Source of the DNA: Naegleria gruberi
Lineage: Eukaryota
Direction: 5' to 3' (one strand)
DNA length: 64,000 nucleotides
Assembly (NCBI GenBank): GCA_000004985.1
Contig: GG738848.1
Each line of letters opens with the position of its first letter. Position 1 is the first letter of the stretch. Positions 2,279 through 40,404 of this stretch are shown one piece after another. The notes below the pieces were generated by a model, which had not been told where the DNA came from, did no database searches, and was given only the letters and a program-made list of their open reading frames with translations. The position numbers and the translations under genes are program-made.

Positions 2279-5200
2279 ATGAGTAAACAACTTTTTCGGA
2301 TTTGTAGCAACAATTCTTCATCAGCAGTTGCAACGAGGAATGGTAGTGTGCAGAAGAAAGGCTTGTTGATGACGGTTCGGGATCATGATGTCGGTAATAG
2401 TCAGAGAGGAAACTATCATACCTCTTTTAAAAATCAAGCAAAAATTGGATTATTTGGAGATATTCACTTTCAAGATGTTGGTTTGGAGAGAGTGGTTGAG
2501 ACTGGAGAGTGGATTACAAAAGAGTTTGAAAATCAAAAGGTGGATTATATTGTGTGTATGGGTGATGTGTTAAATACTCGAGAGACTGTTAGTATTAAAG
2601 CACAGAGTTCAGCTCTCCAATTTTTTGATAAATTGTCTCAAAAGATACCGAAAGAAATTCACATTATTTGTGGTAATCATGACTTGAATTTAAAGTATGA
2701 TACAAAAGTGAGCTCCTTGGATGCACTTGGTATGTCAAGTGTATCATCTAATAGAATTTATCTTCATAAGCATATTACAGAAACAGAGTTTGATGGAAAG
2801 AAAGTAGTATTAATTCCATATTATGAGGATACTTCAATAATCAGGGATTGGGTTGTTAAAAAAATCACAAAAGAACCACTTGATAATTCGATTGGGTTCT
2901 GCCATATGGCGATTAATGGAGCAATTCAACGATATCAAAAAGATAGTAAGGAAAATGTTTATTCTAGGAGTTATGATGACCATTCTGGAAAGAATATTTT
3001 GGTTGAAAAGAAAAAAGGAGACAAGAAAAAGGATACAGGAAGCGATATGGATTTGCCTGAGGAAGGATCCAAAGTACCAAAATTTTTAACTCAATTTCAA
3101 AGAGTGTTTTCAGGTCACTTTCACCATCATCACTTTTGTGATAAGAAGGTAGCATACGTTGGTGCACCTATGCAACATCACTTTGGAGATTCAGGTGATG
3201 CATCTAGAGGAGTAGTAATTTATGACACTGAAACTGATGAAATACAATTCGTTCAAAATCCTGAGTGGGATAAATTCAGAATACTACGATTGAGTAAGGA
3301 GGAAGACCTTGGAGAAATCACAGAATATAAGGGAAAGCACGTATCTGTTATTTATGAAAGTTTCGATTTAGTTCCCCAAGTTATACAAGAAAAGTTATTG
3401 AAGGCTGGAGCAAGTTCTGTGAAAAAACACTCTGTGGTAGTGAGAAAGGTTCAATCAGCATTATCTAGTGATGATCGTCAAAAGGATGACGAGAAGGCGT
3501 TCACTGGTCAAATGTTTGAGGATTTCGTTGTAAAATATGTAAAACAGTATGCTAATCTATCATCTATGGGATATGATTCTCAATTCAGTGATAATATAAT
3601 CAAAATTGGAAAGGAAATTATTTCAGAATCAACAAAGGAAGATAACAATAATCTAAATGTTGGTGATACGTTCAAAGCTAATATCAAGAGTATCACAATC
3701 CAAAATTTCTTGGGTGTTCAAGGATGTATTACCTTTGAAATCAAGAATATGCAAAATGGAATTTGGTTTTTGGAGGGATCAAATGGTGCTGGTAAAAGTA
3801 CAATTTTAGAGGCACTAACATGGTGTCTTTTTGATAAGTTTTTAAGATCTGATATGAAGGCAGATTTTGTTGTCAATGACCAAGTCAAAAAGGATTGTTT
3901 GGTCAGAGTAGATTTTGAATCAGGTTATTCTATTGAAAGATTCAGAAAGTATACAAAGACTGGAGAAAAGGAATTACCAGATGAATTAATTAGCAAATCT
4001 GCTCCAGAAAGAAAAGGAACAGGTGTTAGAGTTTTTAATCAAGGAACATATCTCAGCGATTTTGAAAAGGGTTCAACAAGAGATTCCCAGACTTCTATTG
4101 AGTCTCTTACCGGAATTAATTTTGATATGTTCACCAAAGCTATTGTTGTGGGAGACAATGCTGTAAATTTCTTAACCTCTGATGCAAAACAAAGAAGAGA
4201 TTTAATTGAAGATTTATTGGGGTTGTATCTTTTTGATAGCTATTTATCTAAGGCAAGGGAAAGAAAAAAGAGTCTTATTGAAAAAGTATATTCCATGAAA
4301 TCAGAACAGGAAAAAACAGAGTCTACCATTGTTTCCTTGGAAGAATCTCTGAAAAAGTGGAAAGAGCAATTATCACAAATTGATTCTGCTATTTCTGAAA
4401 AAGAAAACGATTATGCCGAATCAGTAGAATTGTGTAATGAATTAGTGGCTAAAAAGAAATCAGCAGAGAATAATTGGAAACAATTCCAGAAACTCAATAT
4501 TGCCAGGCAAAATTACAACAATCTCTTGAAGAAAAATGATCAATTAGAAGTCAGAATTAATACCCTCGAAAAGAATCTAGAAAAATTAGCAGAGGAAAAG
4601 GGGTCATTCTTTACTGACGATATCACAGATGTTAAACAATTGGAGAGATATTTTGAGGAGAATATTAATGAAATCAGATCTAATTTGAAGAGATTTTCAC
4701 AAACTTTGATGGAGAGCAATGTAGAATTAAATGTTTCTAAAGAGAAATTAGAAAAGTTGATGGACCTTTCTGAAAACAATGAATGCCCATATTGTGAGCA
4801 ACCTATCAAGGAACACACTCACGAGAAAATTCTTGAAGAAAAAAGAACCATTGAAGCTAGGGTTGAAGAGTTGACACAAAATATTGAGCATATTAATTTT
4901 ACTATTGCAGATTTGCAAGAGGAAATGGATGATTTGGAACGCTCTAAAAAATCCACAATGCAATCTCTTACCAAACTTGAAAATACAATTATCCTAAACC
5001 AGAAGGAGAAGGCAAATCTTGAAAATGATCTGGTCAATATTAGATCATCTATTGATTCTTCAGAAAAGGAATTGCAAAGTTTATCTAATGAATCTGAGGA
5101 CGTTGAGGCTACTCTTAATAGCTTGGTATCCCAAGAAAGAAAGGCAATGCAAAAAAAGTACGAATTGGATGCCAACATTAAATTCTCAAAGAAGAGAAAA

Positions 5201-27181: not shown

Positions 27182-29173
27182 ATGAGCAAGGGAAGAGACG
27201 CAATTCTTAGATGGTGCCAACGTAACTCTTATGGTTATGATGGTGTAGAAATTGATAATTTTGATTCATCATTTGCCAGTGGTTTGGCATTCTGTGCTCT
27301 CTTGGACAGTGTAAGTTGTTTCTTTCACAAAATTCTAATTCTAGGTTTTTAAAATTTTAATCAATTTGATGATTTGAATTTTTCAATTTTAATATTTTCA
27401 AATTCTTGTGATGATGGTGATAATTGTTTTTTAATTTTTTACTCTGTGTAGCAACGTCCTGATCTTCTTAAGGAATCTGGATTGGAATGGAGCGACTTGG
27501 TTAATGATTTTAGCAGAAATGAAAGATTAGAATGGGCTTTCGGAAAGGCTGATGAAATTGGCATTCCAAGATTGTTGGACCCAGAAGATGTTGATGAACA
27601 AAAACCAGATCCAAAGGTTGTAATAACCTATCTCTCTGGAATGATTCGTTTCTTCCAGGAGGATGATGGTGGATCAGAGGCTACCATTGATAGACCAACT
27701 GGTTCTTTCGCTGCTTCCATTGATGATTTAATTAATGGTGGTGGAAAGAAGAAGCCTTCTGGTGGTGATCAAACACCTCCACCATCATCAGCTAAGGTTC
27801 CACAATTAAAGGCTACCGGAAAGTCTGATTCAACACCACCTGCTGCCTCTCCTAGAAAAGATGTACCAGTTGAAAAACAATTGGAAAATCTTGAAAAGAT
27901 GTACCAAAAGGGTTTACTTAACGAAGAATCCTATGAAAAGAGTAAACAAAAGATTATGGAAAAGATTAAGGAACAACAAGCCCAATTGAGTGCTAGAAGT
28001 GATCATTCTTCAAATTCCGAAACTTCATCCAATTCATCATCTTCTCAACAAACAACAAGTGAAGATAAGACACAAAAGGCTCTTGCCAACTTGCAAAAAC
28101 TCTATGAAAAGGGTACTTTATCTGAAGAAGAATATAAGAAGGCAGTTGAAAAATTGAAGGCTAAATCAGCTCCAGTTACTACAAGTGAAGTCAAACCACA
28201 ACAAACAACTGAACAATCATCATCTTCATCTTCAGTTGATACATCAAAATTCTCTCCAGAACAATTGAAGCAATATGAAAAATTGACCAAGATGCTTCAA
28301 AGTGGTTTATTAGGAGAAGCTGAATATCAAAAATCATTGAATAATTTAATTGATAAGGTCAACAAGTCTCAACCAAGTACAAGCTCACAACAAGAATCTC
28401 CAGTTGTCACCAAACAACCAAATCCACTCATTGAAAAGATTCAAGATACCAAAAAGTTGAATAATTTGAAGACTCTCCTCAACAAGGGTGTCATTACTGA
28501 AGAAGAATTTGATAAATCGATCACTAAGCTCTATCAACAAGAACAAGAAAAGCAAAATTCTGCTCCTTCCACTCCTCCACCAACTGCTGAACCATCATTT
28601 GATGGTGTTGATATTGATAGTTTGAAGGAAGAAGATTTTGATGAAAAGACTAAAGGACGTGTTAAGGCCATTGAAAGAATGTACAAGGCAGGTCTCTTCA
28701 AGGATAACGAATATGCCCATGCTAGAAGAAAGGCCATTATGCAAGGTCTTCAAGAAGCTGGTGGTAAATTCACTCCATCTCCTGTTACTGAAACAAAGGA
28801 ACCTGAAGTCAAGCCAGTTGCTGAAGAAAAGCCACAAAAGAAGAGAACTAACAGTGTTTTCATCCAACAACCTAATCTTCCAAAGGAAATTAATGCTGAT
28901 GTTGAGGATTATCGTATTCTCTATGAAAAGTTGTTGAAGGAACACGAAAAATTGGCAGCTGACTTTGATGAAATTCAAGAAGATTATGAGGAATTGAAGG
29001 AACAATTATCTACTGTCTATGATGAAAAGAAGAAGGATGTTGAAGTTCCAGAAGAACTCAAACCAGTCTTGAAGAAGATTGGCCTCAAGAAGAAGCAATC
29101 TGGTAAGAAATTGGATGTTGTCATTATTTATTCTTCTGATGATTCTCTCGTCACTGAAAAGGTCACTCTTTAA
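27182..29173 (+). CDS. Calponin-homology (CH) domain protein followed by five SHOCT-like repeats. Two exons: 27182-27310, 27452-29173
   Basis: CH domain …ILRWCQRNSYGYDGVEIDNFDSSFASGLAFCALLDS|QRPDLLKESGLEWSDL… is split by a 141-nt GTAAGT…GTAG intron. Five ~30-aa repeats follow: LENLEKMYQKGLLNEESYEKSK / LANLQKLYEKGTLSEEEYKKAV / LKQYEKLTKMLQSGLLGEAEYQKSL / LNNLKTLLNKGVITEEEFDKSI / VKAIERMYKAGLFKDNEYAHAR. They are separated by S/T/P/Q linkers, and a C-terminal coiled coil follows. Confidence 0.72.
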
Positions 29174-30975: not shown

Positions 30976-32904
30976 CTAAGGAAGCAAACTATTGGTAGTG
31001 TCTTTTCTTTCAAACCATGTACTCTTAATCCAAATTATTCTATTACAAATAACAGCAATTATCATGGCAATACATCCCAAAGACCAAATTACTTCTCCTG
31101 TAATTTCCAAAGATCTTTCATTAACTAAAAAGCAACCTGAACCAATTGTGAATAATAAACTACTTGTAATATTCAATAAATAAGCAGATAAATCAATTGA
31201 CATGAATGTAAAACATTTTACATTGATATCCATTCCATTCCTAGCAGATTTAATGATATCCACTTGTTTTACAATATATTGAATTATTGAAACAATTAAA
31301 TATGAAATAGCTCCAACAGACCAATTGACCTCTGCAATAATTACAATTAAAATAGGTGGATTCAACATGTATAACGAAGATCCAATTGTAAAAGTTAATC
31401 CTCCCAAAATTAAAAAGAAATCATTCACCATTTCCAAAATAATCATTTTCAATGGAGGTAAATCAGGAGGTCTATATGAACTAATATCTTGATGTAATTC
31501 ATGCATTTGATCTTTTAACCTTTTAGAACTTTCATTTTGTAAATTTGTAATTTCCTTCACTTTCTTCTCCCATCTGAAATGTCTAATTAAATTAATGACA
31601 TCAACCAAAGCCTTTCCCAATGGTCCAACAAGGAATAAAACTGATCCTATAATAAACAATAATATTCCCGAGAAGAAGAAGGTTACATTATTAGCAATCA
31701 ATAAACCACATCCAGCCACGAACAATGCTGCTCCAATCACAAACGAAATATCCAACAATGCAAAAGCAGCAATATTTAACCCTCTCATCATTATCAGAGT
31801 AGAGTTCTTCTGCTGATGATTCCCAACGAGAACAAGAATGGAAGAGGAAGGAATTTTGGAATTTTTTTCTCTTGTTTTGTTTGATTCTTCGTGTTCTTGT
31901 TTGATTGTTGTTGTAATATTCTGTTGGTGCTTCTTATTGTTGTTGACGATGGTCTTATTACTCCTGTGGAGAATTTCATGATGGAATTGTGAATGTTCAT
32001 CCTTGTTATCATCATGCTGAAGGTTATGTAGAAGGGAATTAATTTTCGAGTGTTCATCTCTGATCGATTGAAGAAGATCGAGTGTGCTATTGTTGTTATC
32101 TACTGCTGTTGAGGTTGACAATTGTTTGAGATTGTTTGAAGAGTTGGGTTGTTCTTGATGATGGAGATTAGTAAGAGAACCATCCAATGTATAGATTGAG
32201 AAGGTCTCTCCTTCTTCACTTGTTGTTGAAGTGCTACTATGACTTGAATTACTATAGGAAAGTGCATGGTGATACTTTCTTTGGGGAGGTTCTAATATAA
32301 TTTCATTGTTGTTGTCTTGTTCTTCATGATGTGATGATGATGAATTCATTACATTTCTTGAATAAGAAGGTTGAATAGAAAATGCTTCCATGTGAATAGG
32401 TTCAACCAATGTTTCCTCCAATTTACCAATTATTGATTTCTCATAATGTTGATTATCACATCCTGATGGAGGTGTAATATCTGGTTGTTGCTGATGATTG
32501 TTTTTTTCACAAAGAGAGGAAATAATTGATGGAGAAATCTTAGACAAATCAATTGTACTTGCATTCAGCATTTCAATATTCTCTCCAATAATATTATCTT
32601 TAGTTTCTAATGCTTTTTCTTGACAAGTTGAATCGCCTTGTTTCTTCTGCATGTTGTTGAATGGGTTTGTTTGCATTTTCTTATTAATTTGGTTGTGAGA
32701 GTCTGGCAACGAATCATGCAGCTGCTGAGAAGACATTCCAATAAATTTACCTTTCGTATAATTATTTTCTTCTGCATCCTCAATAATGTCCACAATAACA
32801 ACACTATTGCTTGAAGATCCGTGGTCGGCCGAATAGGAGAAATGTTTCTCTTGATTATTTGTCTTGCTATTTATGTGACTTGTTTTGAAATTCATAAAAT
32901 TCAT
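30976..32904 (-). CDS. Membrane protein with N/Q/S-rich N-terminal half and C-terminal six-TM region built from three internal 2-TM repeats (642 aa)
   Basis: Repeated units FVIGAALFVAGCGLL…FFSGILLFIIGSVLFLVGP, FLILGGLTFTIGSSLYML…WSVGAISYLIVSII, LLFTIGSGCFLV…IWSLGCIAMIIAVI. ATG 32902-32904. Confidence 0.55.
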   Translation of the reverse strand: MNFMNFKTSHINSKTNNQEKHFSYSADHGSSSNSVVIVDIIEDAEENNYTKGKFIGMSSQQLHDSLPDSHNQINKKMQTNPFNNMQKKQGDSTCQEKALETKDNIIGENIEMLNASTIDLSKISPSIISSLCEKNNHQQQPDITPPSGCDNQHYEKSIIGKLEETLVEPIHMEAFSIQPSYSRNVMNSSSSHHEEQDNNNEIILEPPQRKYHHALSYSNSSHSSTSTTSEEGETFSIYTLDGSLTNLHHQEQPNSSNNLKQLSTSTAVDNNNSTLDLLQSIRDEHSKINSLLHNLQHDDNKDEHSQFHHEILHRSNKTIVNNNKKHQQNITTTIKQEHEESNKTREKNSKIPSSSILVLVGNHQQKNSTLIMMRGLNIAAFALLDISFVIGAALFVAGCGLLIANNVTFFFSGILLFIIGSVLFLVGPLGKALVDVINLIRHFRWEKKVKEITNLQNESSKRLKDQMHELHQDISSYRPPDLPPLKMIILEMVNDFFLILGGLTFTIGSSLYMLNPPILIVIIAEVNWSVGAISYLIVSIIQYIVKQVDIIKSARNGMDINVKCFTFMSIDLSAYLLNITSSLLFTIGSGCFLVNERSLEITGEVIWSLGCIAMIIAVICNRIIWIKSTWFERKDTTNSLLP

Positions 32905-33603: not shown

Positions 33604-36600
33604 ATGTCCCAACAACAACAACAACAACAGGAGGAAGAAATTGATCCAACATTGTTGAATTATAGAAACTTGACATTGTATGTAAAAAAGGGTGAAAGTA
33701 AGGATGTTGTCTCGGCATTGATCAGAGAGAATGAAAGTTCAAGTCAATCATCCTCTTCCGAAGATATTCAAAATAATGTGGAGGAGGCTTTTTCCAAGAC
33801 TGTTGATGAATCTACATTCCGAATTGAAGAATTAGATGAGGAGAGTTTAGAAAAATTATTAGCAGAATTATTAAAAGATCAAGATGATCAAGAAGTGTCA
33901 ATTCAACAAAATTATCTAATGAGAGAACAATCACTAAAACCTCCAGAACCTGGTACTGTTGAAATTAAACAACAAGTTGAATTTCCTCCTAAATTAGATC
34001 AATTAGAAACTGCCATAAATTCTGTAGGAAATTATCTGGCAGAAAAGGCAACAGAAAACAAGAAACAAGAAACAAACTTTAAAATCATTAGATCTGTTCC
34101 AACTGGAAAGCAAAATTCGGAAATAAGTTCAGTACCATTTATTTCCATTACATTTAGTCATGATATGATTGAAGAATTTGATGGAGAACCAAAATCATTT
34201 GAAGAAATTGATTTTGTTGAAATTAGTCCAGTCACTGAAAATGTTAAGGAAGGAAAATGGAAATGGATTGGAACTAAATCTTTAGTATTTCAACCAAGAT
34301 TCAGATTTGATAGATCTAATGAATTCACTTACAAGATTCTGAAAGAAAAGACCAAATCTGTGTTTGGTAACACGATTGAAGAAGATTTGGTGGTCACTTT
34401 CAAAACGCCAACATCACGCACTCTCTCAGTTATTCCTTCGTCAACAAGTTTCCCAATTTCCGAACTTCCTTTCATTTTCCTTCAATTTGATCAAGATATG
34501 GATAAGCAAAGTGTTCTTGCACATTTGTCAATAACAGTTTCTTCTAAATCTATTGGTGTAGAAGTATTAGAAGAAACATCAATTATTTCCAAAATGTTGG
34601 AAGATTTGGATTATGCTAAAAAGTTTCCATATGTTTTTGGATCATACAATAGATGCCTTCAAGGCACATATGACCCAAAGAGGTGTATGTGGCTGAAGTT
34701 GCATATTGCCAATGAAACTTTACATGCTGGAAAGGATTATCCAAAAATTGGATTAGGAGAATATTTGAGTATTTTATTGAAAAAGGGGTATAAGAGTTTG
34801 GAAGGACCAATACCGTCAGCTCATGAATACTCGACAGGTATTTATGGTTATTCCAAAATGGCAGTCAACTATCATTACCCAAAGAAACATTTATTTTATA
34901 ATGATATTTATCCAGGATGTTCATTTACTTTCAGTTTCAACAATCCAATTGATTTGGACAAGATAGAAAGTATTGAAACATTTGTCCAAGTTGAACCAGC
35001 CATTAAAAATTATAAGGTAACTTGTAATGGTAATAGTATTGTAATATCTGGTGATACACTTGCTAGAGAAAAGTATCGTGTGAAAATATTGAAAGGTGTC
35101 CCTGATATTTATAATCAAAGCTTGGAAAATGAATATGAAGCAACTTTTGAAGTGAGCGGAGAAGATAGAGAATTCAACATGACTCTTTCAAACTCAACAA
35201 TTATGCCACCTTGCTTGTTTGATTCACAAGATCCTTTTCTTTACTTTGATTCTGTAAATATTCAAGAAACTCATGTTATTATTAATCAAGTTGATCCTGT
35301 AGAAATGTACAAGGAAAGCTCTTTTCCCAAGTTAGCTGCAAAAACAGTATTTAATTCATATGATAATTATGATTACTTTGATTGGTATCCTCGTAAACCT
35401 CACAAGATTGGAAAGGAAGTTTTTGATCAAAAGGTAAAACCTGATAACTTTGTAAAAGATAGAACAGTTTCAACCAAGATTATGTTATCTCAATATCTCC
35501 AAAATGGAAAGACTGGATCTCTACTTGTTCACATCAAACCAAAGAGATCTATTTTATACAACTTATTTAATGGATACGAAACCAAGTGGATTCAAGTTTC
35601 AAATTTGTGTGCTGATATTATTAGTATCACAGGAGAGAAGGCAGCAGTTTTTGTTACTGATTTCTCAACTGGAAAACCAGTTCCAAATGCCACAGTAACT
35701 TTATCCTATTCTACCAATAATACACCAACGAAAGATGAAGACTTGAATATTATCTCAACAAGTGAAACAACAAATGAAAATGGAATGGCCTTCTTTTCCT
35801 ACAGTCGTAATTATCACACTGTTTTGATCATTTCAAAAGATCAAGATCAAGTTGTGTACACAAATCCAACAATTTACTCTCATTCAATCCGAACCGACAC
35901 AATTTCTGCTCATATATTTAATGATCGTGGTCTTTACAAGCCAAATGAAAATGTACATATCAAAGGTTTCCTTAGAGATATCAAGTACAATTATGAAAAG
36001 GGTTCTGAGAACTATGGCACCTATTCTATTAGAGAACCATCCACTGAAACTAAAGCTACCTATGAAGTTCAGGATTCTCGAGGTGTCAAATATTTGGATG
36101 GAAAGATTGAATTGAGTCCAAGTGGATCCTTTGTATTGGATTTAACTGTTCCTGATAATGCTAATTTGGGTTCTCATTCCTTGACAATTTGCTATGGATC
36201 TAGAAAATTTAACCACACTTTCAATGTTCAAGAATTTAGAACAAAAGAGTATACAGTTTCTAGCAGCATTATTCCTTCATCTGATAAGGTGGATTTGTTT
36301 ATTGGTGACAAATTGGTAAATAAGGTCAGCGCAAAGTATTATAGTGGAGGTGGCTTGTCCAATTCCCAAGTTAACTACCAGTTCAACACAGAACCTGCAA
36401 CCTTTAATCCAGAAGGATGGAGTAATTATGTCTTTCAAGATACAGATCTCAGAAATAATTACAAGCTCAATACTCTTATTGAAAATATGAAATCCAAATA
36501 TCAAGTATATCAAAGCTTTAACAGTGCAACTGACCCAAGCGGAGATGATCATGCCTTTATGCAGTTGTGGGATCCAGAAAAAATAGTAACTGGTCCAATA

Positions 36601-39600
36601 AGCATTAATTGTAAAGCAAATGTTCAAGATATTAATAGACAAACACAAGGAACATCTAGTGAGGTTATTCTCCACTCTTGTAAATACTATGTTGGTATTC
36701 GCTGTACAAAGAGAGTTGTTATGAAATCTGATGAAAATATTGACTGCTTTTTCATTGTTACAGATATTAGAGGTAAAATTGTAAAGGATATTCCAATATC
36801 TGTAAAATTGGTCAAGTTTGGTTATGATTCTAGGGGTTATGAAAGATGGGAAACCACTAAACCAATCAAGGAAATTAATCTAACCTCTCAAAGTCAACCA
36901 CTTCTTCATACATTTACCCTCAATGAAAACACAAATGATACTGCCTATGGAGAGTATGCAATTTTGTGTGAGGTAAAAGAGAGTGAAAGACCAAAATTTA
37001 GATCAGGCATTAACAGATGTAGTATTCCAATTCGTAAATTTGGATTTAAAGAACACTTGACATCAAAGGGATACACTTCACTCAGCACCAATTCACTTGA
37101 GTTAATTTCTAATAAGTTTGAAACTGATGAATACGAGCCAGGTGAAGAAGCCAAAGTTTATATTGTCTCTCCATTCAATGGTGAGTGCTCTGGATTTGCC
37201 TGGGTTTTATGCAATGGATTAATCAAAGAGGAGAGATTTGACATTACTAACGGTATCCATGAATTGACCATTCCAATCAAGAAGGAATACAGACCTAATA
37301 TCCAAGTAAGAGTTCAATTATTTGGTACTGAAAATTATATTGATGTTGATGACAAGCCAAGAGTTAATCCAGCTCATGCTACTGGATCTCTAACCCTCAA
37401 TATTTCCAAAACCGAGCATGAACTCACTGTAACTGTCACTCCAAAGGACCCAATCTTGAGTCCAGGAAAAGAAACTGATGTCAGCATTCTCGTAAAAGAT
37501 AAGCAAGGAAACAATGTACCAAATTGTGAGGTTTGTTTAATTGTTGCTGATCAAGCTGTTTTAGATATGGCCAATTATTCAGTTACCAATCCAATGTTTA
37601 CCTTTGTTTCTAACAATTCATGCTCTGTTGATTTCTCTTCGATAAGAGATCGAGTAAGATATTGGTTATATCCAAGAAAAAATCAAAGAGATGAAGAAAT
37701 CTTAGCAATAAGACAACAGGCACTCCCTTCTTCAAATTTGTGTGCATGTGATTTAGCTGGTTGCAGTGGAGGCCGTTCGCGTAAATGCTGTGAACAATGT
37801 GGCGAATGTGACGATATGGCTCAAAAGGAATGCAAACGTGAAAAGTGTTGCAAGAAGTCATGTGGCCTTGCATGTTTTTCTAGAAGGTGTTGTAAAAATA
37901 GTAAGGATTCATATGATGGCTCACGATCCCAGATGCCATCTATGGATGATAGAAATGGTGTATTTGAAATTCGTTCCAACTTTAAACCAGATGCTGCTTT
38001 TATTGGATTTGCTCAAACTGATGAAAATGGATTTGCAAAGCTTGATTTCAAATTGACTGACGCTCTCACAAAATTCAAAGTTACAGCTGTTGTAAATGCT
38101 AAACAAGACATGTTTGGTATTGGTAATTCTGCAATTACTACCAATTTACCTATTGCAGTTAGACCATCACTTCCAAGATTTTTGAATTATGGAGATTTAT
38201 GTGATTTGACCTATGTTTTACAAAATCAAACAGATTCTGATTTGACTCTTTCTCTAGTATGTAATGTATCAAATCTCAGAATATTCAATGGAAAGGATAA
38301 AAATCAACGTAAGAAGGGATATACTGTTGTGATACCAGCAATGGGAAGAAAAGAAATTAGAATTCCTGTTCAAGTACTCAAATGTGGTAAGGCTCTTATC
38401 AATCTTGGAGTTAGAGTGGTTAGAGCCATAGCCAAGAATCCTGAAAAGCAAGAACTTGCCGATGGAATGGTTGGATGGTCAGATGCTGTCAAGAATGATT
38501 TCAAAGTTTTTACTCCAGTAACCAATGAAGCTTTTGCAACGTATGGAGATGTTAGTGCAGAAAGTGAAACTATTGTACAACCAATTTCACTTCCATCCAA
38601 GAATCTATTGGCACACTTTGGTGAATTCACTGTTAGTACTTCAACAACAGCTCTATCTACATTGACTGATTCTCTCATTTATCTCTATTCTTATCCATAT
38701 GAGTGTAATGAGCAAATTGCATCAAAGATTTTAGGTATAGTTTGTATGAAGGAAATGATCTTACAATTCTACACACCTGAAGAGCTTCAAAGATTGATGG
38801 AAATTTCTGGAGAGGAAGAAGTTAACACATTCATTAATTCCAACCTTGCTAGATTATTTGATCGTCAAAGATATGACGGAGCATTCTCATATTGGGATAG
38901 CAAGTTAATTGGAGACCCATTCTTAACATGTCATGTAGCTCTCTGTTTTGCAAAATGTAAATCTGAAGGTTACAAAATCCCAGATCAAATATTATCAAGA
39001 ACCAAATCCATTTTGAAGAATATTTCAAGTTTATTCTTCTTTGGATTCCTTTGGCCAAGATGTATTAAGGATACAATCAAATCATATGCCTATTATATTT
39101 TATCATTGTTAGCTGAAAGTGAATCTGATAAGGGACAGGTAATTTCTCTGTGTGAAGGAATTCTTGATCATTATAATAGCATTACTGAATTGACACAAGA
39201 ATTATCCCCAGAGACTGCTGCCTACCTTGCTATGGCCATTCATAAATGTAAGAAGGAACCAGTAACAGAAGAAAAGAAGGGCTTCTTTGCTAAATTTACT
39301 AAAGAAAAGATAACTATTCATCAATGGTTGGATGCTATCAAATCATACTTTAAGGAAAATGTAACAATTGACTCTGGAATTTATGCTCACTTTATTACTC
39401 GTTATGAAGATAATGAACTCGCTCAAATGGTTATGTTGCATTCAAATACCAGAACTGATGCTGTTGTTTTGGGTTGTTTGATGGAAATTGATAGAGAAGA
39501 CAGTAGTGATATTATTCAAAAATTGGTGAGAAGTTTGTTGGCTGCCAGAAATGCAAACAGATATGGTCGTTGGTATAATACTCAAGAAAATTCCATCTGT

Positions 39601-40404
39601 CTCATGTCACTCACTGATTATTTCAAGATATTTGAGAAGGAAATTCCAGATATGAATGTCAATACTTGGCTAGTAGATAGTACTAGACCAGAGGAAACTG
39701 TATTCATGGGTAATCAATCTTGGAAGGGAAGAAGTAGAGAAAAGAAAACTACATCATTACCACTTGTTGCCTTTGTTCCACGAAGTGATATTGAAAAGGA
39801 AGTTGTTAATCCAAATGAAAGTGATTCCAAAAAGTCATTCTTGTTGACAAAGAATGGAGCTGGAAGGCTTTACTATAGAATTGCTCTTTCATACACTCCT
39901 GAAGAATTGGTTCTCAAAGCTCTTGATAAAGGATTTTCAGTTTCCAGAGTTTACGAAGCAATTACCAACCCAGATGATGTCAAGTTTGACAAGTCAACAA
40001 AAACATGGAAGGTAAAATCAGGAGAATTAGTCAGAGTAACAGTTACGATTTGCAATCCAACCAGAAGATACAATGTAGCCATGGTTGACAAGATGCCAGC
40101 AGGTTTCGAAGCTGTCAATCCAGAACTCGATACACAATTTACTGATTTTGGAAATAGTGGCAATGAAGAAGATTTAGCAAACAAATACTATTACAAATGG
40201 TTCGAAAATCAAAACATTAGAGATGAAAGAGTTGAAGCATTCAGCAGAATCTTATATGAAGGCTCCCACGTTTACAGTTATATATGCAGAGCTACTACGA
40301 TTGGATCATTTGTTTCTCCTCCAGCTTATATCGAAGAAATGTACTCTCCTGAATGCTTTGGAAGAAGTAAGACTGAGTTTGTGCAAGTTTATGATAAAAA
40401 ATAA
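33604..40404 (+). CDS. Giant alpha-2-macroglobulin / thioester-containing-protein-like protein (2266 aa), single exon
   Basis: Thioester-like PYECNEQ (CxEQ) followed by TED-type RQRYDGAFSYW. Many MG-like beta-rich repeats upstream. A Cys-rich insert at 37735-37915 sits where a bait region would be. Poly-Gln N-terminus with no signal peptide. Confidence 0.65.
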   Translation: MSQQQQQQQEEEIDPTLLNYRNLTLYVKKGESKDVVSALIRENESSSQSSSSEDIQNNVEEAFSKTVDESTFRIEELDEESLEKLLAELLKDQDDQEVSIQQNYLMREQSLKPPEPGTVEIKQQVEFPPKLDQLETAINSVGNYLAEKATENKKQETNFKIIRSVPTGKQNSEISSVPFISITFSHDMIEEFDGEPKSFEEIDFVEISPVTENVKEGKWKWIGTKSLVFQPRFRFDRSNEFTYKILKEKTKSVFGNTIEEDLVVTFKTPTSRTLSVIPSSTSFPISELPFIFLQFDQDMDKQSVLAHLSITVSSKSIGVEVLEETSIISKMLEDLDYAKKFPYVFGSYNRCLQGTYDPKRCMWLKLHIANETLHAGKDYPKIGLGEYLSILLKKGYKSLEGPIPSAHEYSTGIYGYSKMAVNYHYPKKHLFYNDIYPGCSFTFSFNNPIDLDKIESIETFVQVEPAIKNYKVTCNGNSIVISGDTLAREKYRVKILKGVPDIYNQSLENEYEATFEVSGEDREFNMTLSNSTIMPPCLFDSQDPFLYFDSVNIQETHVIINQVDPVEMYKESSFPKLAAKTVFNSYDNYDYFDWYPRKPHKIGKEVFDQKVKPDNFVKDRTVSTKIMLSQYLQNGKTGSLLVHIKPKRSILYNLFNGYETKWIQVSNLCADIISITGEKAAVFVTDFSTGKPVPNATVTLSYSTNNTPTKDEDLNIISTSETTNENGMAFFSYSRNYHTVLIISKDQDQVVYTNPTIYSHSIRTDTISAHIFNDRGLYKPNENVHIKGFLRDIKYNYEKGSENYGTYSIREPSTETKATYEVQDSRGVKYLDGKIELSPSGSFVLDLTVPDNANLGSHSLTICYGSRKFNHTFNVQEFRTKEYTVSSSIIPSSDKVDLFIGDKLVNKVSAKYYSGGGLSNSQVNYQFNTEPATFNPEGWSNYVFQDTDLRNNYKLNTLIENMKSKYQVYQSFNSATDPSGDDHAFMQLWDPEKIVTGPISINCKANVQDINRQTQGTSSEVILHSCKYYVGIRCTKRVVMKSDENIDCFFIVTDIRGKIVKDIPISVKLVKFGYDSRGYERWETTKPIKEINLTSQSQPLLHTFTLNENTNDTAYGEYAILCEVKESERPKFRSGINRCSIPIRKFGFKEHLTSKGYTSLSTNSLELISNKFETDEYEPGEEAKVYIVSPFNGECSGFAWVLCNGLIKEERFDITNGIHELTIPIKKEYRPNIQVRVQLFGTENYIDVDDKPRVNPAHATGSLTLNISKTEHELTVTVTPKDPILSPGKETDVSILVKDKQGNNVPNCEVCLIVADQAVLDMANYSVTNPMFTFVSNNSCSVDFSSIRDRVRYWLYPRKNQRDEEILAIRQQALPSSNLCACDLAGCSGGRSRKCCEQCGECDDMAQKECKREKCCKKSCGLACFSRRCCKNSKDSYDGSRSQMPSMDDRNGVFEIRSNFKPDAAFIGFAQTDENGFAKLDFKLTDALTKFKVTAVVNAKQDMFGIGNSAITTNLPIAVRPSLPRFLNYGDLCDLTYVLQNQTDSDLTLSLVCNVSNLRIFNGKDKNQRKKGYTVVIPAMGRKEIRIPVQVLKCGKALINLGVRVVRAIAKNPEKQELADGMVGWSDAVKNDFKVFTPVTNEAFATYGDVSAESETIVQPISLPSKNLLAHFGEFTVSTSTTALSTLTDSLIYLYSYPYECNEQIASKILGIVCMKEMILQFYTPEELQRLMEISGEEEVNTFINSNLARLFDRQRYDGAFSYWDSKLIGDPFLTCHVALCFAKCKSEGYKIPDQILSRTKSILKNISSLFFFGFLWPRCIKDTIKSYAYYILSLLAESESDKGQVISLCEGILDHYNSITELTQELSPETAAYLAMAIHKCKKEPVTEEKKGFFAKFTKEKITIHQWLDAIKSYFKENVTIDSGIYAHFITRYEDNELAQMVMLHSNTRTDAVVLGCLMEIDREDSSDIIQKLVRSLLAARNANRYGRWYNTQENSICLMSLTDYFKIFEKEIPDMNVNTWLVDSTRPEETVFMGNQSWKGRSREKKTTSLPLVAFVPRSDIEKEVVNPNESDSKKSFLLTKNGAGRLYYRIALSYTPEELVLKALDKGFSVSRVYEAITNPDDVKFDKSTKTWKVKSGELVRVTVTICNPTRRYNVAMVDKMPAGFEAVNPELDTQFTDFGNSGNEEDLANKYYYKWFENQNIRDERVEAFSRILYEGSHVYSYICRATTIGSFVSPPAYIEEMYSPECFGRSKTEFVQVYDKK
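33608..33632 (+). repeat. CAA trinucleotide run encoding poly-Gln
   Basis: (caa)7 at the start of the A2M-like ORF. Confidence 0.9.

Follow-up and report, generated by a model that had tools for sequence, protein, structure and literature searches.

A cysteine-rich segment in the predicted bait loop of a bacterial-type, probably cytosolic alpha-2-macroglobulin of Naegleria gruberi

In a 64,000-nucleotide stretch of nuclear DNA of the amoeba Naegleria gruberi (31% GC; GenBank assembly GCA_000004985.1, contig GG738848.1; hereafter, the window), the open reading frame (ORF) at 33604..40404 encodes NAEGRDRAFT_45966 (XP_002681967.1, UniProt D2V1U6; 100% match), a protein of the alpha-2-macroglobulin (A2M) family. 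A dense cluster of cysteines very probably makes up the middle of the bait (trigger) loop in this thioester-bearing, bacterial-type A2M. The original prediction, made from the DNA alone, had described a metallothionein-like cysteine cluster at this site of an A2M-like protein. Beyond that, we find that the A2M is of the bacterial type and probably cytosolic, and that the trait is seen repeatedly among eukaryotic homologues. Regarding the role of the cysteines, we favor, with a probability of about 40%, a metallothionein-like metal-thiolate cluster that would control the cleavability of the bait.

The peptide CACDLAGCSGGRSRKCCEQCGECDDMAQKECKREKCCKKSCGLACFSRRCCKNSKD, encoded in frame on the + strand within this ORF, comprises 56 residues and contains 14 cysteines, the same number as residues 1380–1430 (51 residues, 27% cysteine). 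About 18 cysteines in 55 residues had been predicted at 37735–37915; the cluster and its in-frame site (from residue 1378 on) hold, while the count comes down to 14. The predicted CC/CxC/CxxC arrangement is present, with three CC, one CxC and two CxxC motifs in addition to two CxxxC, and the predicted distance of about 320 residues to the thioester applies to the start of the cluster, which lies 271–321 residues upstream of the thioester cysteine (Cys 1701). Cysteines make up 34 of the 2173 residues outside the loop (1.56%), out of 48 in the whole protein. The probability of at least 14 cysteines in 51 residues is 4e-14, or 9e-11 when corrected for about 2200 windows, and in 2000 shuffles of the protein no 51-residue window held more than 8. 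The cysteine enrichment of the bait loop is far above chance. An origin by tandem repetition or DNA slippage was ruled out, as the DNA across the segment contains no tandem repeat besides a trivial 9-nucleotide match in two copies.

The host protein carries the Pfam domains MG2, A2M_BRD, A2M and bMG10 together with a thioester motif, which bears out its description as A2M-like, and the cysteine loop lies between A2M_BRD and A2M. HMMER alignment with Salmonella SaA2M (4u48) paired residues 1168–1347 with 753–926 and 1501–1802 with 1000–1276, leaving SaA2M residues 927–999 unaligned and facing the cysteine cluster; the A2M_BRD region, which falls within the first of these blocks, also aligns to residues 764–906 of ECAM. 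In a direct alignment with ECAM (Escherichia coli yfhM from MG1655), Cys 1701 corresponds to Cys 1187 of the CLEQ motif, residue 1349 to ECAM 933 and residue 1447 to ECAM 952, while the whole of residues 1361–1430 forms an insertion behind ECAM residue 937. The structure of ECAM cleaved by elastase places the bait region within MG8 and lacks density for Arg923–Leu942 (PMC4498604). As the point of insertion falls within Arg923–Leu942, the cluster is placed inside the bait region, in agreement with the position originally proposed. The term "inserted" is likewise apt. Conserved motifs bound the loop (RYW.YP.KN before, F.(I/V)R..F.PDA after), and clade-A loops, at 98–126 residues, are 30–55 residues longer than those of the closest bacterial homologues (median 69 residues), with the cysteine core roughly equal to the extra length.

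By fold and motifs, NAEGRDRAFT_45966 is a member of the bacterial-type A2M family, from which it departs only in lacking an export signal or anchor. Its C-terminal MG domain contains RDER (residue 2206) and EEMY (residue 2244), counterparts of the bacterial RDDR and ExMY motifs, to which either the thioester domain or the cleaved bait is bound; in ECAM, binding of the cleaved bait frees the thioester domain (PMC4498604). Judged by these motifs, the thioester CNEQ and the YPY lock, the trap machinery is intact. An AlphaFold2 (AF2) model of residues 1140–2266 (mean pLDDT 77.5) contains confident MG, CUB, thioester (TED) and MG10 domains. Among known structures, native SaA2M matches it best (4u48, E 4.7e-50), with matches to SaA2M and ECAM ranging from 1e-48 to 1e-50; bacterial A2Ms are the only solved relatives detectable by sequence, and identity to the PDB chains is about 17%. 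A short helix (residues 1361–1373) precedes the loop, pLDDT drops to 25–29 for residues 1373–1455, compared to 80–95 in the flanking MG domains, and strands restart at model residue 327 (residue 1466). Disorder is expected for baits and for apo-metallothioneins alike, and the low AF2 confidence in the loop does not separate a truly disordered bait from a metal-dependent fold.

The cluster contains a tetrapeptide, CCEQ (37786–37797, residues 1395–1398), that fits the thioester consensus CxEQ. Several eukaryotic homologues, in clade B and elsewhere, have just this sequence, (E)CCEQ, as their genuine thioester motif. The resemblance is probably a coincidence.

The closest homologues are the paralogue NAEGRDRAFT_59848 (74% identity) as well as N. 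fowleri FDP41_008308 and N. lovaniensis C9374_010671 (51% each). Absence from close orthologues had been named as an outcome that would speak for an assembly artefact; instead, all four Naegleria proteins bear the cluster at the same site, with 13–17 cysteines in a core of 51–68 residues. Loop counts are 14 in NAEGRDRAFT_45966 and odd (13, 17 and 13) in the other three. The loop is the most divergent region of the protein except for the N-terminus; between the two N. gruberi paralogues, window identity is 13% at the loop versus 72% on average, and the only motif shared among the four loops is a weak central CC[KR]x(2,3)SC. Cysteine density is kept in these loops, but cysteine positions are not conserved.

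We extended the comparison to 280 full-length homologues, pooled from an exhaustive search of representatives and a further search for homologues, and divided them into 36 eukaryote-like members, which lack an N-terminal hydrophobic segment and have at least 13 cysteines outside the loop, and 244 bacterial-like members. Loop cysteines are absent from 239 of the 244 bacterial-like homologues and never exceed two, whereas 16 of the 36 eukaryote-like homologues have 9–19, and all 16 keep the CxEQ thioester. In 12 cysteine-rich proteins examined, the bait loop is the sole cysteine-dense window; the equally variable N-terminus never is. A second Naegleria clade is also cysteine-rich (P0282, which is NAEGRDRAFT_59800, P0281, P0284, P0285, P0271 and P0280/P0397). 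Its loops contain 9–17 cysteines with CCC/CCCC runs, and some are strongly acidic; the loop of NAEGRDRAFT_59800 has 17 cysteines with CCCC runs, and N. fowleri and N. lovaniensis members fall into the same clade. Net charges of clade-B loops reach -6 (N. lovaniensis) and -11 (N. fowleri). Cysteine-dense bait loops occur in two further eukaryotic lineages as well. In the transcriptome-derived P0273 (RCCRKCCCNCCNCCCKCC...), 15 cysteines are packed into 28 residues, and a metagenomic homologue group has 19 loop cysteines.

Many eukaryotic homologues lack a cysteine-rich loop. Each Naegleria genome encodes three or four paralogues with differing cysteine-rich loops and one with none. Loop cysteines number zero in N. 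gruberi P0283 and N. lovaniensis P0125 and 1–4 in the Willaertia magna members; these, one N. gruberi and one N. lovaniensis paralogue, Willaertia magna, together with Dracoamoeba, the nearest neighbor of P0273 in a rough neighbor-joining tree, are cysteine-poor sisters of cysteine-rich members. The trait was therefore gained or lost several times; the tree served only to note such sisters, not to count independent gains. Keeping 13–17 cysteines at 13% identity in a genome of 31% GC, along with recurrence in at least four clades, requires selection.

The closest homologue outside Naegleria, Willaertia magna P0122 (ABK040_013894, 45% identity), has two loop cysteines, and its thioester is lost (SEYESNEH instead of YPYECNEQ). 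Sappinia P0195 and P0194 have likewise lost the thioester and are cysteine-poor. NCBI and UniProt list P0283 (XP_002670374.1) as a "ras GTPase domain-containing protein", yet its Pfam matches are all to A2M-family domains and none is to Ras; the label may have been carried over during annotation, or the gene model may be truncated, as it starts inside the conserved N-terminal region.

The bait slot of relatives can house entirely different modules. P0288, a eukaryote-like, signal-less homologue encoded on a 146-kb metagenome contig (L001:10001-16096) among eukaryotic neighbors (RNAi-type RNA-dependent RNA polymerase, SNase-Tudor, GPS/RGS), contains a complete ubiquitin that ends in LRLRGG (Pfam 1–72 of 72, E 7.6e-25; residues 1234–1305, about L001:13700-13915). 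The ubiquitin sits exactly between A2M_BRD and A2M, and the thioester, YPYECNEQ, is intact. The Pfam match is the evidence for this module; in an AF2 prediction the ubiquitin region reached a pLDDT of 30–60, probably because the alignment contained no ubiquitin rows. A complete ubiquitin at this site indicates that the bait loop accepts foreign modules and suggests that P0288 may be a natural deubiquitinase trap. In addition, Dictyostelium DdiCPRas2, a homologue of bacterial-type A2Ms (COG2373), carries a circularly permuted Ras GTPase (cpRAS, residues 2844–3013) between homology blocks 2140–2771 and 3158–3933, about 775 residues from its C-terminus (PMC2430557). In NAEGRDRAFT_45966, about 820 residues separate the loop end from the C-terminus, and cpRAS, judged by coordinates, probably occupies the same slot. 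ECAM with a swapped bait is still a working trap, the specificity of which is set by the bait (PMC9918453).

Among bacterial-like homologues, we noted by eye modules that look folded, namely a segment resembling a CarboxypepD_reg domain in the bait loop of P0268 (GTLVGTVTDARTGEPLQGAIVTLRG...) and a repeat resembling the Asp-rich calcium-binding TSP3/OmpA type in that of P0250 (DRDADGILDSADRCPNEPENFNGLQDQDGCPD).

Known traps of the A2M family are extracellular in animals and periplasmic in bacteria. NAEGRDRAFT_45966 and its eukaryotic relatives, judged from their sequences, are likely to be cytosolic. In the first 120 residues of NAEGRDRAFT_45966, the maximum Kyte-Doolittle hydropathy over 19 residues is 0.22, compared to 1.4–3.4 in the bacterial homologues examined. 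The Naegleria A2M proteins as a group do not exceed 0.37 at the N-terminus and have 47–51 cysteines in total, as opposed to 4–8 in the bacterial homologues examined. No stretch of NAEGRDRAFT_45966 rises above a hydropathy of 1.3 and no transmembrane (TM) segment was found in it; its reading frame is closed by a stop 18 codons before the ATG, and no upstream exon coding for a signal peptide is evident before the start. Among the 244 bacterial-like homologues, about 190 start with a hydrophobic signal or anchor, while eukaryotic members, complete transcriptome-derived ORFs included, have neither an N-terminal hydrophobic segment nor a TM segment. Ubiquitin and Ras are cytosolic modules and, taken together with the missing export signals, make the cytosol the most economical reading.

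In a reducing cytosol, the 14 thiols would not be disulfide-bonded and could act as ligands of a metallothionein-like Zn or Cu cluster or possibly, via the CxxCxxC motif CEQCGEC present in the core, of an Fe-S cluster, which would fold the otherwise disordered loop. With metal bound, the bait would be compact and shielded; metal loss, oxidation or a protease attacking the K/R-rich linkers would expose the loop and allow it to be cut. A cut anywhere in the loop would untether its C-terminal part, which would displace the thioester domain from the C-terminal MG domain as in ECAM, and the exposed thioester could then link covalently to the attacking protease. As the metal cluster would both fold and shield the loop, triggering would depend on metal or redox state. 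The composition of the core is consistent with this model. Its cysteine content and CC/CxC/CxxC motifs, the lack of histidine, a single aromatic residue (Phe), 16% hydrophobic residues and a net charge of +4 bring it near human MT2A.

Several observations weigh against a metal-thiolate cluster. A Pfam scan of the four Naegleria cysteine-rich loops alone at E≤10 returned zero matches, neither to a metallothionein or other metal-binding family such as zinc fingers nor to ANATO, LDLa or Sprouty; a word-indexed protein search with a 65-residue cysteine segment also gave no match but missed even its own protein, the composition being ill-suited to this method. Even the paralogues, at 74% identity, do not share their cysteine positions, although metallothionein isoforms usually retain their cysteine array. 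The label "metallothionein-like" is thus upheld for composition but not for homology. Moreover, the cores of the paralogue and orthologues contain three aromatic residues and 1–2 histidines, homologues of other clades, with cysteine runs of 3–4 and 41–54% cysteine, come nearer to a palmitoylated cysteine string than to a metallothionein, and the cytosolic placement derives solely from absent targeting signals.

The main rival explanation, which we consider somewhat unlikely, is that the loop is a cysteine string S-acylated (palmitoylated) by DHHC enzymes, tethering a cytosolic trap to the phagosome or plasma membrane. The string would stand in for the N-terminal lipid or TM anchor of the bacterial ancestors, which is missing from the eukaryotic proteins, and cleavage of the loop would both release the protein and trigger the trap. 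The distribution of N-terminal anchors, frequent among bacterial-like homologues and missing from all eukaryotic ones, is in line with such a replacement, and the cysteine-rich loop is restricted to eukaryotes, as is DHHC-type S-acylation. A lipidation cluster needs cysteine density without positional conservation, which is the pattern seen, and it accommodates odd cysteine counts. In addition, CC pairs are flanked by K/R (RKCC, EKCCKK, RRCCK) and adjoin a small hydrophobic patch, CGLACF. Loops of P0273 (RCCRKCCCNCCNCCCKCCAAPQACC, 54% cysteine), P0281 and P0282 (CCCC runs) resemble that of the cysteine-string protein (CSP), which is targeted to membranes by a string of 12–15 palmitoylated cysteines (PMC4447612). 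The core of NAEGRDRAFT_45966, however, is hydrophilic and partly acidic (CCEQCGECDDMAQKEC), with no more than 9 cysteines per 30 residues and no run longer than two, and the net charges of clade-B loops would be unfavorable beside a membrane. Furthermore, a mere anchor should sometimes sit in the disordered N-terminus, where none of the 12 cysteine-rich proteins has one, and the many eukaryotic homologues that lack a cysteine-rich loop altogether also count against a general anchoring role.

Alternatively, the loop might be a substrate mimic or integrated decoy that evolves fast to lure certain proteases, such as effectors of pathogens that cleave cysteine-rich, lipidated or metal-bound host proteins. 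Cysteine richness would then decide which proteases are caught, as the ubiquitin homologue would lure deubiquitinases. We regard this explanation of the cysteines as distinctly unlikely. The ubiquitin in the slot of P0288 and the cpRAS at a similar C-terminal distance in DdiCPRas2 (PMC2430557) speak for it, as do the evolutionary rate of the loop, the fastest besides the N-terminus, the several differing cysteine-rich paralogues per Naegleria genome and the finding that bait sequence alone dictates specificity in engineered ECAM (PMC9918453). On the other hand, no class of proteases known to prefer cysteine-rich sequence was identified, and decoy function is compatible with metal or lipid loading of the loop and hence not exclusive. 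A broader version concerns the slot itself: amoeboid eukaryotes of the Heterolobosea, Amoebozoa and Euglenozoa might run cytosolic thioester traps of bacterial origin, with integrated decoys plugged into the bait loop. Ubiquitin would serve to catch deubiquitinases, a Ras-like GTPase to catch proteases that cleave Ras, and cysteine-rich, metal- or lipid-loaded strings to catch proteases attacking such host targets. We consider this proposal unlikely.

The loop could also sense oxidants or electrophiles, with thiol oxidation or alkylation, by an oxidative burst or thiol-reactive toxins, cross-linking or unfolding it and thereby altering its cleavability or activating the trap. Fourteen closely spaced thiols in a predicted disordered loop of a probably cytosolic protein would suit such a sensor, as would a cysteine number that is conserved while positions are not. 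We nevertheless find it improbable, as there is no conserved CxxC redox pair and we found no precedent in the A2M family. Moreover, metal release upon oxidation is typical of metallothioneins, and a redox sensor therefore overlaps largely with the metal-thiolate model.

That the protein is secreted by an unrecognized route and its cysteines form a disulfide-knotted mini-domain, like the anaphylatoxin domain of C3/C4/C5 or LDLa of MCR, is very improbable. Animal thioester proteins do bear disulfide-rich modules in the bait slot (PMC7016707), and the number of loop cysteines in NAEGRDRAFT_45966 is even. Yet the disulfide knot raised in the original prediction is disfavored by the lack of a signal peptide or TM segment in any of the roughly 36 eukaryote-like homologues and by the odd counts in three of the four close Naegleria proteins. 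The unconserved cysteine pattern, the lack of an ANATO or LDLa match and of an AF2 fold, and the ubiquitin in the slot of a homologue, which points to the cytosol, add to these objections. Finally, a loop without specific function, be it compositional drift of a disordered, poorly conserved low-complexity segment or an artefact of assembly or annotation (a retained intron, for example), is hardly credible, given independent assemblies of three Naegleria species, both N. gruberi paralogues and transcriptome-derived ORFs (P0273) that share the feature, the retention of cysteines and recurrence across clades noted above, and a continuous ORF in which the segment has a GC content of 0.45 versus 0.34 for the gene, the opposite of an AT-rich retained-intron signature.

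Table 1. Positions of the A2M gene and its parts in the window
Feature	Position	Strand	Basis
Single-exon gene, bacterial-type alpha-2-macroglobulin, 2266 aa	33604..40404	+	ORF list and translation
N-terminal ~120 aa, polyglutamine/acidic, no signal peptide, lipobox or TM	33604..33963	+	Hydropathy scan
MG2 domain, aa 769-875	35908..36228	+	Pfam PF01835, E 4e-15
A2M_BRD domain, aa 1172-1322, directly upstream of bait loop	37117..37569	+	Pfam PF07703, E 1.8e-16
Predicted bait loop, aa 1361-1453, 93 aa, hypervariable	37684..37962	+	Alignments and AF2 pLDDT
Cysteine-rich core, 14 Cys in 51 aa, aa 1380-1430	37741..37893	+	Translation, composition, ECAM alignment
A2M domain, aa 1466-1550, MG fold resumes	37999..38253	+	Pfam PF00207, E 4e-11
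Thioester motif YPYECNEQ, aa 1697-1704; reactive Cys 1701 = nt 38704-38706	38692..38715	+	Motif and alignment
bMG10/C-terminal MG domain, aa 2110-2250	39931..40353	+	Pfam PF17973, E 5.7e-30

The bacterial-type A2M of amoeboid eukaryotes was probably acquired from bacteria. The genes that flank the A2M gene are unrelated to it and eukaryotic in style (endonuclease/exonuclease/phosphatase, YrhK-like, RGS, alpha/beta hydrolase), and none of its neighbors encodes a DHHC enzyme, a metallothionein or a protease that might act as a partner. Two neighboring ORFs contain typically bacterial domains: one (27482–29173, + strand) has three SHOCT repeats and a partial CH domain, the other (30976–32904, - strand) two YrhK-like repeats. 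These may be further horizontally acquired genes.

These findings are of interest mainly for the broader picture of amoebal thioester traps, a clade that is probably cytosolic and has customized baits. In this clade, which comprises free-living and pathogenic amoebae including N. fowleri, the export signal appears to have been lost and the thioester machinery kept, while the trigger loop was repeatedly rebuilt with cysteine strings. If the proteins are intracellular, they would represent a previously unrecognized kind of protease sensor or inhibitor, with its specificity, or its arming by metal, lipid or redox state, written in the bait. If the slot does receive decoys, they would constitute an intracellular innate-immune or surveillance system, with the cysteine cluster as one decoy or as a conditional trigger. 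The literature searched contained no mention of these Naegleria genes, of a cysteine-rich bait or of a ubiquitin bait in an A2M.

Compared to known systems, the protein most closely follows the bacterial A2Ms ECAM/YfhM and SaA2M (4u48, 5a42, 4rtd), with which it shares the MG2, A2M_BRD, A2M and bMG10 set, a thioester that corresponds residue for residue, the YPY lock, RDER/EEMY and a disordered bait loop inside MG8. Unlike ECAM, it is eukaryotic and lacks a signal peptide or lipobox; it is about 600 residues longer (2266 versus 1653) and has 48 rather than 3 cysteines, and its bait is about 70 residues longer and cysteine-rich, whereas that of ECAM is composed of Gly, Ala and charged residues. 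The closest non-eukaryotic relatives, at 28–40% full-length identity, are A2Ms of about 2000 residues of the Chloroflexi/Acidobacteria type (P0005–P0015 and about 240 others). They have the same architecture, an N-terminal Big_5 region and a PPxTG...FPP motif, but most bear the N-terminal anchor described above, and their bait loops are rich in Ala, Gly, Pro and Ser, with 0.07% cysteine.

A cysteine-rich bait is less unconventional than originally proposed, as cysteine-rich modules fill the bait position of animal C3/C4/C5 (ANATO) and MCR (LDLa) (PMC7016707). These modules, however, are folded, disulfide-bonded and extracellular, with a fixed pattern of six cysteines detectable by Pfam or SMART, while the Naegleria loop has no Pfam match and no fixed pattern, is predicted to be disordered and is probably cytosolic. 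Metallothioneins resemble the loop in composition: its 27% cysteine falls within their range of about 20–35%, and they have in common CC/CxC/CxxC motifs, K/R/S/G/E partners, few aromatic residues and predicted disorder. Yet they are small free-standing proteins with few aromatic residues or histidines, if any, and the loop is internal to a protein of 2266 residues and matches none of their families; no Naegleria metallothionein is described in PMC7578549. With the cysteine strings of CSP/DNAJC5, the loop shares dense cysteines, basic flanks and the lack of a signal peptide. CSP-like densities (41–54%) with CCC/CCCC runs are attained by the homologues P0273 (15 in 28), P0281 and P0282. Compared to a CSP string of about 12–15 cysteines in about 25 residues, the loop of NAEGRDRAFT_45966 is more dilute (27%), has runs of two at most and is partly acidic; in addition, it lies within a beta-rich protein of 250 kDa, unlike the string of CSP/DNAJC5. 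Finally, CPRas2 and P0288 are, like NAEGRDRAFT_45966, bacterial-type A2Ms of likely horizontal origin that lack a secretion signal and carry a module about 775–820 residues from the C-terminus; in both, the insert is a folded domain, a cpRAS GTPase or a ubiquitin, rather than a cysteine-rich low-complexity string.

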